DNA of 44,977 nucleotides from a virus (Duplodnaviria; Heunggongvirae; Uroviricota; Caudoviricetes). The number at the start of each line of letters is the position of its first letter. Positions within the stretch are counted from its first letter, which is position 1. The stretch lies in the IMG/VR virus record IMGVR_UViG_2563366968_000003; one strand, written 5' to 3'. Both the position numbers and the translations under genes were made by a program. Shown here piece by piece: positions 23,718 through 43,788 of this stretch. The notes under the pieces were generated by a model. It was not told the origin of the DNA, ran no database searches, and saw nothing but the letters and a program-made list of their open reading frames with translations.

Positions 23718-24028
23718 TGCTGGTTCAGAGTTAAAAAAAAACTATGATTTTTTTCATGATGTTACCGTAGTATGTGAGTATCCATCGAATAGACACCAAG
23801 CAAAAAAGCTCCCGAAGGAGCCTTCATTTTCACTTTTTTAAATCCAACGACAGACGGCTGGCATTTAAGTATTGTGAAATATTATCAAATGTAATCATCA
23901 TTGATTTACAAAAGATACATTTTGCCCCGAAAGGATTCATGTCAGAAACATCAAAAGATGATGTTCTATACTGGGAACCATGACAACACGGGCATCTAAA
24001 GTGAATATGGTTTGTAATATTGTCTACC

Positions 24029-24241
24029 TCAAAGCGCCACAACATGAACAGCGGCAGGACCTTTAGGTCCGTTCTCAATACCAAATTCAACTTCCTGATT
24101 CTCAGTTAATGTTTTGAAATCGTTGCTCTGAATTGCTGAGAAATGGACAAACACATCTTTGCTGCCATCTTTCGGCGTGATGAAACCAAAACCTTTTTCA
24201 GGGTTAAACCATTTCACTAAACCAGTCATTTTGTTAGACAT
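24029..24241 (-). CDS. cspI: Cold shock protein CspI-like (CspA family)
   Basis: 70 aa [38 protein letters not shown] with RNP motifs. Confidence 0.9.
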
Positions 24242-24604
24242 AATTATTACCTTTTGAAGAAATTAGCCCTTGGGCAGAATGGTCCGAAAAAAAAATATCA
24301 GAGAGAAAAACCAACAAGGAAATCTCAAGAGGTACAAATAATAAAATTATAACAATGACTGCTTCAGATAAATTTGTAACAAACCAGAACACCATTAACG
24401 CATGATTAACCACCCATAGCAAGGATTACTTTTGTAAAGAAAAACACAGCAATGAAAGAATAGCTTTATTTATTAATAAAACGTGTCATTCTGATTAAGA
24501 CCTTTTATCTTACCCTTAAGATTTCAGGAATTTTGGCTCATGGAAGAGTCCTTTTTATTTAAATTTTACATTCCGCGATGTAAATGTTCCGATTTAATAT
24601 TACC

Positions 24605-26632: not shown

Positions 26633-26913
26633 GAGATTGTGGTGCTTTTTGTGGGAGTCATCCACTTACGCACTTTGTTTTGCCATGCCAGCAGTTAGCT
26701 TCTGCTGTAAAACTATTCATGCAGCAAACCTGCACTTCACCACAATGGTTAGCATACTTTTCCTGATTAAGATTTTGCCAAATATGCTAGCCATTGTTTC
26801 ATGTATTGGACCTCCTTACTTTTTATTAAAGAGATCCAATATTCACTACTCTGTCCGTATCTCTACTCAGGCATCAGCCTTCTTCGTTATCGTATACAGA
26901 CGAGCGATGAATT

Positions 26914-27129
26914 TTAATCAGTAATGATGACATTTGCTGCTGCAGGACCTTTAGCACCACTCTCTATAGAGAAGGTAACCTTTTGACCTTCAAATAAGGT
27001 TCGATAATTATCATTCTGAATCGCAGAAAAATGCACAAACACATCTTTACTACCATCAACAGGAGAAATAAAGCCGAAACCTTTATCAGCGTTAAACCAT
27101 TTTACTAAACCAGTCATTTTATTTGACAT
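26914..27129 (-). CDS. cspB: Cold shock protein CspB-like
   Basis: 71 aa [38 protein letters not shown]. Confidence 0.9.
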
Positions 27130-27429
27130 TCTACATTCCTTAACTTGAGCCTTTCGGCATAAATGGTTTGCATAACAGAAACGACTTCGTACTTAATTGG
27201 AGAGACTCAAAGAAGGAATAAGTGAATAACACCTGAAATGAGAACTGCTTTAGTAAACTACTTCGTATATCGTCTGTTCTTCAAACCGACGCAATCATTA
27301 ACGCATAGTTGAACATATGAAGCAATGTTTATTTTAGACATCCAGCCATCTTCAACCCCATCAAAAAACTATAGCTTTCTTCAGGAACGTGTGTATAGTG
27401 CGCCAAGTTATCAGTATTAAGGAATTTTT

Positions 27430-33726: not shown

Positions 33727-34060
33727 GAAAAATCCCCCAGAGAATTGTCTGGGGACATTTTAGAATGGTTCAAAGGGGACATTACAGCTTGGTGTTAACA
33801 ATAGCCTGCTTCTCCGTGCCTTTCGGCACGTAAGAGGCTAACCTACATGTGTCTAGCATGAAATTGGCCTCAGATTAATGTTAAGCGTCTTGCAGGACGC
33901 GTAATGTTAACTGGGGCTTTTCTCTATCTGCCGTTGGTGTCCATGCCCGAGGCAGATAGCCTCAAGCACCCGCAGTCATTCTACTTAACTAAGATTTCCC
34001 CGCAAACCGTTTTTGTCCAGCACAGTAAATATCCAACTAAACCAATGGAGTTCGCTGTAT

Positions 34061-38427: not shown

Positions 38428-38875
38428 TTGCTTTTTCTATAAGTTCGTCAGTTTCACGATCCACTACGGCAGGATCAGCAAAAAGCAGTCCGGACTCCAC
38501 CACATCGCCATATTCTTTGTTTAACCCGGCGATCATGCACGTGATGCTTTTTCCGTCAGTAATTTCACGATACAACCTGAAATCATTAATCCGGATAGCC
38601 TCCATAATTGCAGGCACTAGCGCCGTGAACTTTTCACGCTTATCCCTGGTGTCGATAGCCTTCCAGCGTTCAAATATCTTCACTCGATTAACGCCAAGCG
38701 CTCGCTGATCAATCGCGCCACCTTCATATGTGACACGCTGAACATCGATGTTCGGGCGCTCTTTCAAAGCCCAGAATGCTTCAGTGATTAATATCGTCGC
38801 CTGCTCCTGTGTCATTCCTGGTCGACATATCCAGGCATCCAGAGCCTCACGAGCCTGTTCAGGAGTGATTTTCAT
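38354..38875 (-). CDS. Hypothetical protein in the cII position (possibly YdaT-like)
   Basis: 173-aa ORF between the cro-like dicC and the O-like gene. Confidence 0.45.
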   Translation of the reverse strand: MKITPEQAREALDAWICRPGMTQEQATILITEAFWALKERPNIDVQRVTYEGGAIDQRALGVNRVKIFERWKAIDTRDKREKFTALVPAIMEAIRINDFRLYREITDGKSITCMIAGLNKEYGDVVESGLLFADPAVVDRETDELIEKAIAFKLAYRQQYQQKAGWNYEPSFC

Positions 38876-39089
38876 TGTTCAACCGCCCCGCCCGCTTCGT
38901 CTTACGATATTCATCATAAACTTTGGGATCATACTGAAGCTCCCCGCCAGATGCCTCCTGTAGACGCATCGCGCGACCTTCGGGAACTAAATCCCCTTTC
39001 CAGCTATAAAGCGAAGCCAAACGAATACCTGCTGCTTGTGCAAGTTTTGTTTTTGAACCGAAATACAAAAGAGCGTCAGTTTTAAGCAT
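38859..39089 (-). CDS. dicC: DicC, Cro-like repressor
   Basis: 76 aa MLKTDALLYFGSKTKLAQAAGIRLASLYSWKGDLVPEGRAMRLQEASGGEL. Confidence 0.85.
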   Translation of the reverse strand: MLKTDALLYFGSKTKLAQAAGIRLASLYSWKGDLVPEGRAMRLQEASGGELQYDPKVYDEYRKTKRAGRLNNENHS

Positions 39090-39099
39090 TTAAAACACC

Positions 39100-39170
39100 T
39101 TTATTGTTAGTCATAACTAACAAGATAGATGTTAACAAAAACATAGTCAATACGATTTAGCATTAGCTAA
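39100..39170. promoter_or_regulatory. dicA-dicC divergent promoter/operator region with TGTTAGT-type palindromes
   Basis: TGTTAGTCATAACTAACA near-palindrome at about 39104-39121 and TTAGCATTAGCTAAC at about 39156. Confidence 0.45.
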
Positions 39171-39172
39171 CT

Positions 39173-39580
39173 ATGGAAACAAAAAATTTAACTATCGGCG
39201 AACGCATCAGGTATCGTCGGAAAAACCTCAAACACACCCAAAGGTCTCTTGCTAAAGCCCTGAAAATCTCCCATGTGTCTGTATCACAATGGGAACGGGG
39301 TGATAGTGAACCTACAGGGAAGAACCTTTTTGCCCTCAGCAAAGTATTGCAATGCTCACCAACATGGATTCTATTTGGCGATGAAGACAAGCAACCAACA
39401 CCACCTGTTGAGAAGCCAGTTGCCTTATCCCCCAAAGAACTAGAGCTCCTTGAGCTGTTTAATGCACTGCCAGAATCAGAACAGGATACCCAGCTCGCCG
39501 AAATGCGAGCTCGAGTAAAAAACTTCAATAAACTCTTTGAAGAATTACTAAAAGCCCGTCAGCGGACAAATAAAAGATAA
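39173..39580 (+). CDS. dicA: DicA, HTH-XRE repressor of the dicB operon
   Basis: 135 aa METKNLTIGERIRYRRKNLKHTQRSLAKALKISHVSVSQWERGDSEPTGKNLFALSKVLQCSPTWILFGDE. Confidence 0.9.
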   Translation: METKNLTIGERIRYRRKNLKHTQRSLAKALKISHVSVSQWERGDSEPTGKNLFALSKVLQCSPTWILFGDEDKQPTPPVEKPVALSPKELELLELFNALPESEQDTQLAEMRARVKNFNKLFEELLKARQRTNKR

Positions 39581-39746
39581 CATCATCAATGAGTTATCTT
39601 TTACCACATCAATTATGTTAGCTATAGCATACAAAATCACTTGGCCGATATGTTAGTCATGGCTAATCTTGTTTGCATCAACACACCGCACGGTGTTCTC
39701 AGCAAACAGTTCCGCTACCCCAGCGTTAAGGGGAAATGAGGTCAGC

Positions 39747-39902
39747 ATGGATACTATCGATCTTGGCAACAACGAATCTCTGGTGTACGGCGTGTTTCCA
39801 AACCAGGACGGCACGTTCACCGCAATGACGTATACCAAAAGCAAAACGTTTAAAACCGAAAATGGTGCCCGTCGCTGGCTGGAAAGAAACTCAGGTGAGT
39901 GA
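39747..39902 (+). CDS. ydfA: YdfA-like small protein (51 aa)
   Basis: MDTIDLGNNESLVYGVFPNQDGTFTAMTYTKSKTFKTENGARRWLERNSGE. Confidence 0.7.
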   Translation: MDTIDLGNNESLVYGVFPNQDGTFTAMTYTKSKTFKTENGARRWLERNSGE

Positions 39903-39903
39903 T

Positions 39904-40032
39904 ATGGATTTCGACACAATCATGGAAAAGGCTTACGAAGAATACTTCGAAGGCCTTGCCGAAGGCGAAGAAGCTCTCAGCTTCAGTGAGTTTAAACAGG
40001 CGCTTTCCAGTTCGGCAAAATCTAACGGCTGA
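39904..40032 (+). CDS. ydfB: YdfB-like small protein (42 aa), not in ORF track
   Basis: Manual translation MDFDTIMEKAYEEYFEGLAEGEEALSFSEFKQALSSSAKSNG; starts 2 nt after the ydfA stop. Confidence 0.65.
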   Translation: MDFDTIMEKAYEEYFEGLAEGEEALSFSEFKQALSSSAKSNG

Positions 40033-40061
40033 TAAGCGAAACAGCACCGCGAGGAATCAGT

Positions 40062-40280
40062 ATGCAGAAACGAGAACCCGTCATCATCGCGCCAGACTAT
40101 ACCGATGATGAACTTTATGAGTGGATGCGCCAGAAAATTAATGCAGCGCAGGATCTGAAATGGGCTAATGAAGCCAGGGCTAAGCAGGCTGAAAATCTGT
40201 CCGCTCTGGAGCAGGATATCACCAATCTGGAAAAAGCAGCGGCATTAAGCATTGCCAGAATGATTACATACCCGCGTTAG
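40062..40280 (+). CDS. ydfC: YdfC-like protein (72 aa)
   Basis: MQKREPVIIAPDYTDDELYEWMRQKINAAQDLKWANEARAKQAENLSALEQDITNLEKAAALSIARMITYPR. Confidence 0.75.
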   Translation: MQKREPVIIAPDYTDDELYEWMRQKINAAQDLKWANEARAKQAENLSALEQDITNLEKAAALSIARMITYPR

Positions 40281-40620
40281 TAGCTAATCAACAAAGCTAA
40301 GGTTAGTAATTAAGGAGTTCTCCACGGGTGAGGTGGAGTGCGTGCGCCGGACACGGGTGCGCATCCGGAACTGACAGTTTACTGAAAGGATATTTCCCTG
40401 AAAAGTCAGACCATAACGCGAAAGCGCACGGCGAGGTAGCTGGTTCATAGATAGCCTGTCGTTAAATTTTCGTCGACCGTGCGCTTCCGGTTGTGGCAAC
40501 CCGCGAAATGGCGCGGCGGTAAGTATGGCGGGGTTATTCCTTCCCCGTTGAGGACACCGGGTTGTCAGGTTGACCATACGCTTAAGTGACAACCCCGCTG
40601 CAACGCCCTCTGTTATCAAT

Positions 40621-40673
40621 TTTCTGGTGACGTTTGGCGGTATCAGTTTTACTCCGTGACTGCTCTGCCGCCC
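40621..40673 (+). ncRNA. dicF: DicF small RNA (cell-division inhibitor sRNA) with 3' terminator hairpin
   Basis: TTTCTGGTGACGTTTGGCGGTATCAGTTTTACTCCGTGACTGCTCTGCCGCCC followed by TTTTT matches the recalled 53-nt DicF sequence. Confidence 0.85.
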
Positions 40674-40847
40674 TTTTTAAAGTGAATTTTGTGATGTGGT
40701 GAATGCGGCTGAGCGCACGCGGAACAGTTAAAACCAAAAACAGTGTTATGGGTGGATTCTCTGTATCCGGCGTTAATTGTTAACTGGTTAACGTCACCTG
40801 GAGGCACCAGGCACTGCATCACAAAATTCATTGTTGAGGACGCGATA

Positions 40848-41036
40848 ATGAAAACGTTATTACCAAACGTTAATACGTCTGAAGGTTGTTTTGAAATTGG
40901 TGTCACTATCAGTAACCCAGTATTTACTGAAGATGCCATTAACAAAAGAAAACAAGAACGGGAGCTATTAAATAAAATATGCATTGTTTCAATGCTGGCT
41001 CGTTTACGTCTGATGCCAAAAGGATGTGCACAATGA
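40848..41036 (+). CDS. dicB: DicB cell-division inhibitor (62 aa)
   Basis: MKTLLPNVNTSEGCFEIGVTISNPVFTEDAINKRKQERELLNKICIVSMLARLRLMPKGCAQ. Confidence 0.85.
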   Translation: MKTLLPNVNTSEGCFEIGVTISNPVFTEDAINKRKQERELLNKICIVSMLARLRLMPKGCAQ

Positions 41037-41224: not shown

Positions 41225-41316
41225 AACAGTTCCGTAATAAATATCCGGTTTCATTCTTATATGCCAGCAATGGCAGGGATTTGTTCATCCTTAAATCTGT
41301 CATGAGGTTAAAACAA

Positions 41317-43788
41317 ATGAGTAAAGTCTTTATTTGCGCCGCTATTCCTGACGAACTGGCAACAAGGGAAGAAGGCGCTGTGGCTGTAGCCACAGCCATT
41401 GAAGCTGGCGACGAACGCCGTGCTCGAGCAAAATTTCACTGGCAATTCCTGGAACATTATCCGGCTGCTCAGGACTGCGCTTATAAATTTATTGTCTGCG
41501 AGGATAAACCTGGCATACCCCGCCCTGCCCTCGATTCATGGGATGCTGAATATATGCAGGAAAACCGCTGGGATGAGGAGTCTGCTTCTTTTGTCCCGGT
41601 TGAGACTGAATCCGATCCGATGAACGTCACTTTTGACAAGCTGGCCCCTGAAGTACAGAACGCTGTCATGGTTAAGTTCGACACATGTGAAAACATCACC
41701 GTTGATATGGTTATTAGCGCACAGGAATTGTTGCAGGAAGACATGGCAACATTCGACGGACATATCGTTGAAGCGTTGATGAAAATGCCAGAAGTTAACG
41801 CCATGTATCCGGAGCTTAAGTTGCATGCCATCGGGTGGGTTAAGCATAAATGTAAGCCTGGTGCCAAATGGCCCGAAATTCAGGCAGAGATGCGCATCTG
41901 GAAAAAACGTCGCGAAGGTGAACGCAAGGAAACCGGAAAATACACGTCTGTTGTTGATCTCGCCCGCGCCAGAGCCAATCAACAGTACAGTGAAAATTCA
42001 ACAGGAAAAATCAGCCCGGTCATTGCTGCCATTCATCGCGAATACAAGCAGACATGGAAAACACTGGATGACGAACTGGCCTACGCTCTCTGGCCTGGTG
42101 ATGTGGATGCCGGAAACATTGACGGCAGCATCCATCGCTGGGCAAAAAATGAAGTTATCGACAACGACCGCGAAGACTGGAAGCGTATCTCGGCATCAAT
42201 GCGCAAACAGCCTGATGCCCTTCGCTACGACCGCCAAACTATTTTTGGCCTTGTCCGTGAGCGTCCGATCGACATTCACAAAGATCCCGTAGCACTGAAC
42301 AAATATATCTGCGAATACCTGACGACAAAGGGCGTGTTTGAGAATGAAGAAACAGACCTGGGCACTGTTGATGTTCTCCAGTCATCAGAAACACAAACTG
42401 ATGCAGTGGAAACTGAGGTATCTGATATCCCAAAAAATGAAACCGCGCCGGAAGCTGAACCATCTGTAGAGCGTGAGGGGCCGTTCTATTTCCTCTTCGC
42501 AGATAAGGACGGAGAAAAATGCGGTCGCGCAAACAAACTTTCTGGTCTGGATAAGGCACTGGCTGCTGGCGCCACTGAAATCACAAAAGAAGAATATTTT
42601 GCCCGAAAAAATGGCACATACACGGGCTTACCGCAAAATGTAGATACCGCTGAAGATTCAGAACAACCAGAGCCGATAAAAGTTACCGCTGACGAAGTAA
42701 ACAAAATTATGCAGGCAGCCAATATCAGCCAGCCTGACGCCGATAAGTTGCTTGCTGCATCACGTGGTGAATTTGTTGAAGGGATTAGTGACCCGAATGA
42801 TCCGAAATGGGTTAAGGGGATCCAGACCCGCGATTCTGTGAACCAGAACCAGCATGAATCGGAACGGAACTACCAAAAAGCGGAACAAAACAGCCCAAAT
42901 GCGTTACAAAACGAGCCAGAAACGAAACAGCCTGAACCAGTGGCGCAACAGGAAGTGGAAAAAGTCTGCACCGCCTGCGGTCAGACCGGCGGCGGCAACT
43001 GCCCTGATTGTGGCGCGGTGATGGGCGACGCAACATACCAGGAAACATTCGATGAAGAGTATCAGGTTGAAGTTCAGGAAGATGATCCGGAGGAAATGGA
43101 AGGCGCTGAACATCCACACAAGGAGAACACTGGCGGCAATCAGCATCACGATAGCGATAATGAAACTGGCGAGACGGCAGATCGCTCAATTAAGGTGAAC
43201 GGTCATCACGAAATCACATCCACCAGCAGGACGTGTGACCATCTAATGATCGACCTTGAAACCATGGGAAAAAATCCTGATTCCCCGATCATCTCAATAG
43301 GTGCAATATTTTTCGATCCGCAAACCGGAGATATGGGACCGGAATTTAGTAAGACTATCGATCTGGAAACTGCTGGCGGAGTCATTGATCGGGACACCAT
43401 TAAATGGTGGCTTAAGCAATCACGCGAAGCGCAATCTGCCATTATGACCGATGAAATCCCGTTAGATGATGCACTGTTACAATTGCGGGAATTTATCGAC
43501 GAAAACTCCGGTGAATTTTTTGTTCAGGTTTGGGGAAATGGAGCCAACTTCGACAACACGATTTTGCGCCGTTCATACGAACGGCAGGGGATCCCCTGCC
43601 CGTGGCGTTACTACAACGATCGCGATGTACGCACAATCGTTGAGCTGGGGAAAGCCATAGACTTCGATGCCAGAACGGCTATTCCATTCGAAGGTGAGCG
43701 CCATAATGCACTTGATGACGCCCGTTACCAGGCAAAATACGTTTCAGTTATCTGGCAAAAACTGATCCCGAGTCAGGCTGATTCTTAA
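41317..43788 (+). CDS. Large protein with internal zinc ribbon and C-terminal DEDDh-type 3'-5' exonuclease domain, in the recombination-gene position (YdfE-like N-terminus); start at 41281 or 41317
   Basis: MIDLETMGK (Asp-x-Glu motif), GNGANFD and HNALDDARYQ motifs at the C-terminus; CTACGQTGGGNCPDCG zinc ribbon; ORF 41281-43788. Confidence 0.7.
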   Translation: MSKVFICAAIPDELATREEGAVAVATAIEAGDERRARAKFHWQFLEHYPAAQDCAYKFIVCEDKPGIPRPALDSWDAEYMQENRWDEESASFVPVETESDPMNVTFDKLAPEVQNAVMVKFDTCENITVDMVISAQELLQEDMATFDGHIVEALMKMPEVNAMYPELKLHAIGWVKHKCKPGAKWPEIQAEMRIWKKRREGERKETGKYTSVVDLARARANQQYSENSTGKISPVIAAIHREYKQTWKTLDDELAYALWPGDVDAGNIDGSIHRWAKNEVIDNDREDWKRISASMRKQPDALRYDRQTIFGLVRERPIDIHKDPVALNKYICEYLTTKGVFENEETDLGTVDVLQSSETQTDAVETEVSDIPKNETAPEAEPSVEREGPFYFLFADKDGEKCGRANKLSGLDKALAAGATEITKEEYFARKNGTYTGLPQNVDTAEDSEQPEPIKVTADEVNKIMQAANISQPDADKLLAASRGEFVEGISDPNDPKWVKGIQTRDSVNQNQHESERNYQKAEQNSPNALQNEPETKQPEPVAQQEVEKVCTACGQTGGGNCPDCGAVMGDATYQETFDEEYQVEVQEDDPEEMEGAEHPHKENTGGNQHHDSDNETGETADRSIKVNGHHEITSTSRTCDHLMIDLETMGKNPDSPIISIGAIFFDPQTGDMGPEFSKTIDLETAGGVIDRDTIKWWLKQSREAQSAIMTDEIPLDDALLQLREFIDENSGEFFVQVWGNGANFDNTILRRSYERQGIPCPWRYYNDRDVRTIVELGKAIDFDARTAIPFEGERHNALDDARYQAKYVSVIWQKLIPSQADS

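Follow-up and report, generated by a model that had tools for sequence, protein, structure and literature searches.

The question raised by this locus is whether the TGTTAG palindromes that lie on both sides of the dicA repressor gene are operators and, if so, to which class of immunity switch they belong. The window, by which we mean the complete stretch of 44,977 nucleotides analysed here, had been given an initial annotation that described these palindromes as a bipartite operator arrangement, reminiscent of OL/OR in lambda and placed unusually. Our analysis leads us to regard the palindromes as very probably the operators of a lambdoid immunity switch of the P22 type. The operators as such are already known, with PR-like and PL-like sites described since 1986-88 and revisited in 2012, 2023 and 2024. 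The papers that defined the dic operators are reportedly those of Bejar (1986 and 1988) and Cam (1988).

The dic module and its prophage context

Comparison of positions 38800-40400 with many E. coli genomes revealed 99.9% identity to the annotated dicC-dicA-ydfABC genes, and the narrower interval 39060-39760 was 99.7% identical to K-12 MG1655. Prophages of the DicA type are very common in this species, with matches in 3,866 of the 5,426 complete genomes. The region is thus the dicC-dicA-dicB (Qin-type) immunity module, located inside a near-complete lambdoid prophage. The following genes define it:

38859..39089, minus strand: dicC, an open reading frame of 76 aa encoding a Cro-like repressor, named dicC in the 99.9% identical E. 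coli records
39173..39580, plus strand: dicA, an open reading frame of 135 aa encoding a CI/C2-type repressor without a cleavable C-terminal domain, annotated in E. coli records
39747..39902, plus strand: ydfA (Pfam DUF1391), which opens the DicA-repressed ydfABC-dicF-dicB-ydfD operon
40622-40673: DicF RNA (Rfam, 76.7 bits)

The module extends from 38859 to 41036 and shares the order dicC, dicA, ydfA, ydfB, ydfC, dicF, dicB, ydfD with the E. coli Qin locus, of which it is the same locus. It differs from K-12 Qin in its surroundings, as the window module resides in a near-complete prophage with intact O-like, YdaT-like and 835-aa exonuclease genes, the points at which the K-12 Qin remnant is presumably truncated. 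The 835-aa open reading frame (41281-43788) carries a C-terminal exonuclease region and is called "exonuclease" or "exodeoxyribonuclease VIII" in matching records; its counterpart in K-12 is the ydfE position, which we take to be disrupted.

Unlike the short K-12 Qin remnant, the window (1-44977) represents almost a whole lambdoid prophage. The record of Escherichia phage PhiR42_1 (host ECOR13), whose cI product is 100% identical to the window DicA, matches the right half (20000-44775) at 99.5% identity, covering 90% of it, while the left 20 kb are 95-96% identical to tail, head and terminase genes of the phages ev243, PhiR46_1 and others. Rfam searches additionally placed two cspA-type thermoregulator leaders, belonging to paralogous cold-shock genes, and a sok antitoxin RNA of a hok/sok-type module within the prophage (24002-24388, 26898-27290 and 33800-33971, all on the minus strand). 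As the prophage is near-complete, the DicA/DicC switch described here may belong to a functional temperate phage.

The repressor pair

Pfam analysis assigned DicA to HTH_3 (E=1.3e-16) and Phage_CI_repr (E=7.5e-6), which corresponds to a CI/C2-type helix-turn-helix N-terminal domain, and residues 8-70 of DicA were 59% identical to residues 6-68 of P22 C2. The alignment with C2 covered only the N-terminal 70 residues and left the C2 C-terminal domain unmatched, and none of the Pfam matches within the 135 aa of DicA was to Peptidase_S24. We concluded that DicA acts like CI/C2 at operators, yet falls outside the LexA-like, RecA-cleavable class; that DicA is missing the cleavable C-terminal domain is also stated in the literature (PMC10448788). 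DicC matched P22_Cro in Pfam (E=1.7e-11, 44.1 bits against a cut-off of 30.2) and showed 36% identity to P22 Cro (E=2e-12).

Distribution of the palindromes in the window

All four palindromic sequences quoted in the initial annotation were recovered, at most one base away from the positions given there: TGTTAGTCATAACTAACA at 39105-39122, TTAGCATTAGCTAAC at 39157-39171, TGTTAGCTATAGCATACA at 39616-39633 and TGTTAGTCATGGCTAATC at 39651-39668. Counted over the entire window, the bare heptamer TGTTAGY was not enriched, with six matches against 7.7 expected; four of the six are nevertheless found inside 553 bp around dicA, an arrangement with a chance of about 9e-5 for random positions, while the other two (575 and 848) are isolated and lack a palindrome. 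The full 18-bp dyad TGTTAGYN4RCTAACA, searched with up to two mismatches, occurred three times in 45 kb (39105, 39616 and 39651) against 0.24 expected, and none of 100 shuffles gave three such matches. Allowing three mismatches added 39155-39172, the site that contains TTAGCATTAGCTAAC. The core TTAGYN4RCTAA had three perfect matches (39107, 39157 and 39653) against 0.08 expected, and none elsewhere in the window.

The significance of the motif is therefore limited to its clustering and to the full dyad and does not extend to the window-wide heptamer count. Since the dyad, core and clustering statistics all concentrate at dicA, the palindromes on both sides of this gene are real and non-random, as had been proposed, and the similar frequency elsewhere that would have spoken against the proposal was not observed for dyad or core.

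Operator slots and promoters in the dicC-dicA spacer

The 83-bp spacer between dicC and dicA accommodates three dyads starting at 39105, 39130 and 39155, each with 7-nt arms and a 4-nt centre (18-bp slots). The dyad scan had placed the middle site at 39128, for which 39130 is the better register. The spacer contains the following sites and promoters:

39105..39122: Oc, OR1 slot, a perfect 7-4-7 dyad TGTTAGT-CATA-ACTAACA, located by pattern search and aligning with P22 OR1
39130..39147: Om, OR2 slot, TGTTAAC-AAAA-ACATAGT, with a good left half-site and a poor right half
39155..39172: Oa, OR3 slot, ATTTAGC-ATTA-GCTAACT, with the perfect core TTAGC-ATTA-GCTAA, abutting the dicA ATG
39122..39150, minus strand: predicted dicC promoter, PR-like, with -35 TTGACT (39150-39145), a 17-nt spacer and -10 TATCTT (39127-39122), from a consensus scan
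39158..39163, plus strand: candidate -10 of the dicA promoter, TAGCAT, PRM-like, weak and activation-dependent, the hexamer assignment being putative

The published Oc 20-mer TTGTTAGTCATAACTAACAA corresponds to 39104-39123 and is identical in the window. In vivo binding of DicA to this cloned sequence (pHL1105) was reported by Yun et al. in 2012 to be sequence-specific, with a single A-to-C change abolishing it, and DicA at Oc was found to repress dicC and to activate dicA (PMC3441716). Om and Oa, each alone, were not bound by DicA in vivo in the same study (PMC3441716), and the analogy of Oc, Om and Oa with a three-operator region should, for DicA, be read as a positional one.

Oc overlaps the predicted dicC promoter at its -10 and at its expected start, and P22 PR is annotated at the matching position. 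Om ends 25 nt upstream of the repressor ATG, as does P22 OR2, and may serve as an operator. Six other aligned loci, P22 with its OR3 among them, have a counterpart of Oa directly in front of the ATG, and in L010 and L005 (relatives introduced below) this counterpart lies one base ahead of the ATG. The arms of the site vary with immunity type (TTAGA in L003, L010 and L011; TTAAG in L005). Oa, which overlaps both the promoter and the start of dicA, is likely a target of the Cro-type protein DicC.

The candidate dicA -10 TAGCAT is the positional homologue of the P22 PRM -10 TAAGAT, both ending 10 nt upstream of the ATG, and the annotated P22 record places the PRM RNA start 4 nt before the ATG. 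A Shine-Dalgarno sequence was not visible upstream of dicA, and dRNA-seq has listed the dicA mRNA among the leaderless mRNAs of E. coli (PMC4681348). A simple sigma-70 consensus scan detected the dicC promoter and reported neither the dicA promoter nor the dicB promoter (dicBp).

Probable operators on the dicB promoter

The second pair of palindromes, originally described as lying just downstream of dicA, is correctly placed by its positions; the more apt description is that the pair occupies the promoter of the following operon, ydfABC-dicF-dicB:

39616..39633: distal dicB-promoter operator, OL2 slot (our label), TGTTAGC-TATA-GCATACA, located by pattern search
39641..39669, plus strand: dicBp, PL-like, with -35 TTGGCC (39641-39646), a 17-nt spacer and -10 TAATCT (39664-39669), from alignment with P22 PL
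39651..39668: proximal dicB-promoter operator, OL1 slot (our label), TGTTAGT-CATG-GCTAATC, located by pattern search and aligning with P22 OL1

The distal site ends 7 nt upstream of the dicBp -35, and the proximal site occupies the promoter spacer and overlaps the -10. Both are imperfect dyads with two mismatches each relative to TGTTAGYN4RCTAACA; the site at 39651 is too asymmetric for the dyad scan and was located by pattern search and by matching to the Oc arms. Because of its weak -10, dicBp was missed by the simple consensus scan and was assigned by alignment instead. Transcription from dicBp is predicted to start at A39677, 70 nt upstream of the ydfA ATG.

The ydfA leader (39676-39746, CATCAACACACCGCACGGTGTTCTCAGCAAACAGTTCCGCTACCCCAGCGTTAAGGGGAAATGAGG...) is nearly invariant across heteroimmune E. 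coli loci that differ in their operators and repressors. Two short hairpins, ACACCG/CGGTGT and CCCC/GGGG, are present in it, and its position corresponds to that of nutL in P22. Folded as RNA, the predicted leader (39677-39760) scored no better than shuffles (z = +0.76), which does not indicate a structured leader.

Comparison with P22 and lambda

As a P22 reference we used the annotated record BK000583, oriented like the window, together with its protein_bind and promoter features. In this orientation P22 presents cro on the minus strand, OR1-3 with PR and PRM, c2 on the plus strand, OL1-3 with PL (plus strand) and the early-left genes (plus strand), and the window presents a cro-like gene on the minus strand, three operator slots, the repressor gene on the plus strand, and two operator slots with a rightward early promoter. 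The starts of the 18-bp 7-4-7 dyads obtained in the scan were as follows:

Spacer between cro and repressor gene: 1120, 1143 and 1168 in P22 (locus coordinates); 39105, 39128 and 39155 in the window
Beyond the repressor gene: 1904 and 1939 in P22; 39616 and 39651 in the window

In both P22 (c2) and the window (dicA) the last spacer dyad ends at the repressor ATG. The two downstream sites start 35 bp apart, like the OL2-like/OL1-like pair of P22, and the pair surrounds a -35 that reads TTGACC in P22 and TTGGCC in the window. The spacer aligns column by column with the annotated OR1-3 region, and the downstream sites align with OL and PL; judged from this alignment, the window sites are homologous, slot for slot, to the annotated P22 OR and OL regions. 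The suggested comparison with P22-type operators thus held for the layout and the spacings, which nearly match, while the half-site differs.

The likeness to P22 comprises homology in Cro (36%) and in the N-terminal domain of the repressor (59%), 18-bp 7-4-7 operators, three slots between cro and the repressor gene, two OL-type sites and a CATCA start motif common to both. There are also differences. The half-site is ATTTAAG in P22 and TGTTAGY in the window, which implies a different immunity specificity; P22 C2 possesses a LexA-like cleavable, oligomerisation domain, whereas DicA does not; the PL-type early operon carries gene 24 (N-like) in P22 and YdfABC, DicF and DicB in the window; and P22 has OL1-3, whereas the window shows no clear third OL site. 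Upstream of 39616 no convincing third OL-type site was found, the best candidate being the 5/7 half-site AGTTATC (39591-39597); the third OL site of P22 is itself weak in the dyad scan. Unlike P22, the DicA system does not rely on RecA for its induction, which occurs via the antirepressor Rem, heat or urea (PMC10448788).

In the lambda record, OR1-3 and OL1-3 enclose cI and rexAB, and transcription of cI proceeds towards OL. Lambda therefore shares with the window a repressor gene between two operator clusters, one of which is shared with the divergent cro promoter and the other of which is located on the early promoter towards which the repressor gene points. The lambda operators differ in being 17 bp in length, three per side with start-to-start distances of 23-24 bp, compared with 18 bp in the window, and the separation of cI and OL by rexAB amounts to about 2.3 kb, compared with about 0.5 kb in the window. 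The alignment with P22 and the topology of lambda thus support the view that the sites flanking the repressor gene are operators and the counterparts of OR and OL. The notion of an unusual placement was not borne out, as the P22 and lambda records show the same topology, order and orientation. The short repressor, the lack of a convincing third OL site and the content of the PL-type operon as differences from P22 and lambda are already on record.

Operator arms in heteroimmune relatives

We collected relatives whose repressor identity ranged from 97% to about 60%, using both E. coli genomes and phage records, and both intergenic regions were aligned for six of them (L002, L003, L005, L006, L010 and L011) together with the window and P22. 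Cronobacter phage phiES15 (L012), with an unannotated cro side and operators of another form (TAACTTTTGTTA-like), was excluded from the matrix. The arm types were distributed as follows:

TGTTAGY: window, L002, L006
TGTTAGA: L003, L011
CTTAG (CCTTAG / CTTAGG): L010
TTGAG: L005
TTAAG: P22

In every locus the promoter that follows the repressor gene carries two sites with the arm type of the cro side, at a distance of 34-36 bp from each other. When the arms of the OR1 slot were used as a probe, the locus's own downstream region yielded two matches, a result rarely equalled by shuffles (fraction <=0.003). Matching within a locus was superior to matching across loci where the arm types have no core in common (window or L002 versus L005 or P22), while the arm types that share TTAG (window, L003 and L011) gave no separation between own-locus and cross-locus matching.

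The promoter elements behave differently from the arms. The -35 of the cro promoter (AGTCAA on the plus strand) is invariant in all eight aligned loci including P22 PR, and the dicBp -35 core (CTTGAC type), the -10 (CTAA) and the CATCA motif, which carries the annotated 5' end of P22 PL, are invariant or nearly so (seven loci and P22 PL). The first residues of the recognition helix vary in parallel with the arms (SHVSVSQW, AHVTISQW and SGSSISLW; SNVAISQW in P22). The arm sequences therefore change in concert at OR and OL and track the repressor and Cro pair, while the promoter hexamers stay fixed. Such a concerted change on both sides argues for operators of one repressor/Cro pair; neither a host factor nor chance nor an RNA hairpin would produce it.

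One of the relatives, L011 (OM816835.1, "Stenotrophomonas phage vB_SmeS_BUCT709", 809-1400), contains a DicA-type module with a repressor 62% identical to the window DicA and enterobacterial-style operators (TGTTAGATTTTTCTAACA) in matching slots. Stenotrophomonas is an unexpected host for such a module, and its host assignment or horizontal origin would be worth a look.

Alternative readings of the downstream palindromes

Ragunathan et al. (2023), citing Bejar 1988, describe operators between dicA and dicC and between dicA and dicBp that resemble those at lambda PR and PL, and the same work locates the DicA-repressed dicBp upstream of ydfA and describes a bistable switch that depends on DicC (PMC10448788). 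DicC ChIP-seq yielded peaks on either side of dicA and a motif that includes C(G/A/T)AA (PMC11430063), which fits the TTAG/CTAA arms of the window dyads. In a gSELEX paper DicA and DicC appear solely as dicB-operon regulators, without a site (PMC8249747), and the main text of an E. coli transcription factor ChIP compendium does not mention DicA or DicC (PMC12059191). In the later papers that we consulted, from which the content of Bejar (1986 and 1988) and Cam (1988) is also taken, no DicA footprint on the dicBp sites was found.

From these data one could suppose that the main or sole user of the downstream dyads is DicC or a host factor such as YjdC or H-NS/Cnu, and that DicA represses dicBp from elsewhere or indirectly. 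For DicC, and not for DicA, binding in vivo to both flanks of dicA has indeed been documented directly (PMC11430063), a YjdC ChIP-qPCR signal has been reported at the dic locus (PMC9283627), and the Reg-Seq authors rated the DicA site for dicB as low-evidence and its location as unknown (PMC7567609). However, deletion of dicA derepressed dicBp 22-fold, an effect that deletion of dicC did not have (PMC10448788), and the proximal site matches DicA-bound Oc in 14 of its first 16 bases, which counts against use by DicC or a host factor alone. The tracking of the phage repressor and Cro pair by the arms of the heteroimmune loci is likewise a pattern not expected of a host factor, and the annotated record has P22 C2 bind the homologous OL sites. 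We therefore consider this alternative improbable.

Less likely still is the possibility that the downstream palindromes are RNA or DNA hairpins, representing the dicA 3' end, a terminator or a processing site, instead of operators. The dyads do lie in the 3' flank of dicA, they are able to fold, and a separate strong hairpin covers the dicA stop codon (39571-39603, z = -5.35 versus shuffles). The self-complementarity of the arms is nevertheless weak, with 5/7 pairs at 39616 and fewer at 39651, and likewise in most relatives, while each downstream arm still fits the Oc half-site, the downstream arms of the relatives change to fit their own cro-side operator, and the dyads bracket the conserved -35/-10 hexamers. 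That an AT-rich motif merely recurs by chance in intergenic DNA which is itself AT-rich, as the window-wide count of TGTTAGY might suggest, is contradicted by the dyad, core and clustering statistics and by the matching slots in every relative examined, and is excluded by the shuffles and the slot conservation.

The hairpin over the stop codon is a feature in its own right. It consists of a perfect 11-bp inverted repeat, TAAAAGATAAC / GTTATCTTTTA, with an 11-nt loop, and reaches -12 kcal/mol as RNA; the relative L002 keeps and lengthens the stem (GATAACGCA...TGCGTTATC). A U-tract after the hairpin is absent on the plus strand. The hairpin may be a 3'-end or stability element of dicA, or a weak terminator that insulates dicBp from dicA read-through. 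Within the 3' end of dicA, a terminator-like hairpin followed by a T-run (GTCCGCTGACGGGC TTTTAG) lies in antisense on the minus strand (39554-39567) and could stop leftward transcription into dicA.

Proposed mechanism and significance

Interpreting the palindromes as operators of a P22-type switch suggests the following mechanism. A DicA dimer at Oc would cover the -10 and the start of the dicC promoter and thereby shut dicC off, and from the same site DicA would stimulate the weak promoter of its own leaderless mRNA. On the dyads of dicBp, DicA would exclude RNA polymerase, so that the division inhibitors DicF and DicB stay silent. DicC, in turn, would recognise the TTAG...CTAA dyads on either side of dicA and repress dicA, which would result in a bistable switch. 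The assignment of either protein to the individual dicBp sites, to Om and to Oa, as well as the exact transcription starts, is putative.

The C-terminal domain of lambda CI mediates looping between OL and OR. Because DicA is without the corresponding domain of C2 and CI, lambda-style cooperativity is not to be assumed for it. Oligomers of DicA or DicC might still bridge Oc and the dicBp operators, whose starts lie 511 and 546 bp from that of Oc, in a small loop that encloses dicA, an idea that we regard as unlikely. The distance from Oc to the OL2 slot was not constant among the relatives, nor was a common helical phase seen (496, 511, 536 and 549 bp; 784 bp in P22), and this variability gives no support for strict helical phasing. 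If true, such a loop would provide lambda-like long-range OL-OR cooperativity and autoregulation despite the missing C-terminal domain.

Against the background of operators that have long been described, the gain from this analysis is modest. It consists of the base-level placement of the dicBp operators, with the -35, the -10 and the start assigned by homology to P22 PL, and of a table of arm and repressor co-variation across heteroimmune DicA-type modules. This co-variation table could guide operator-swap work or the immunity typing of DicA-type prophages in E. coli.
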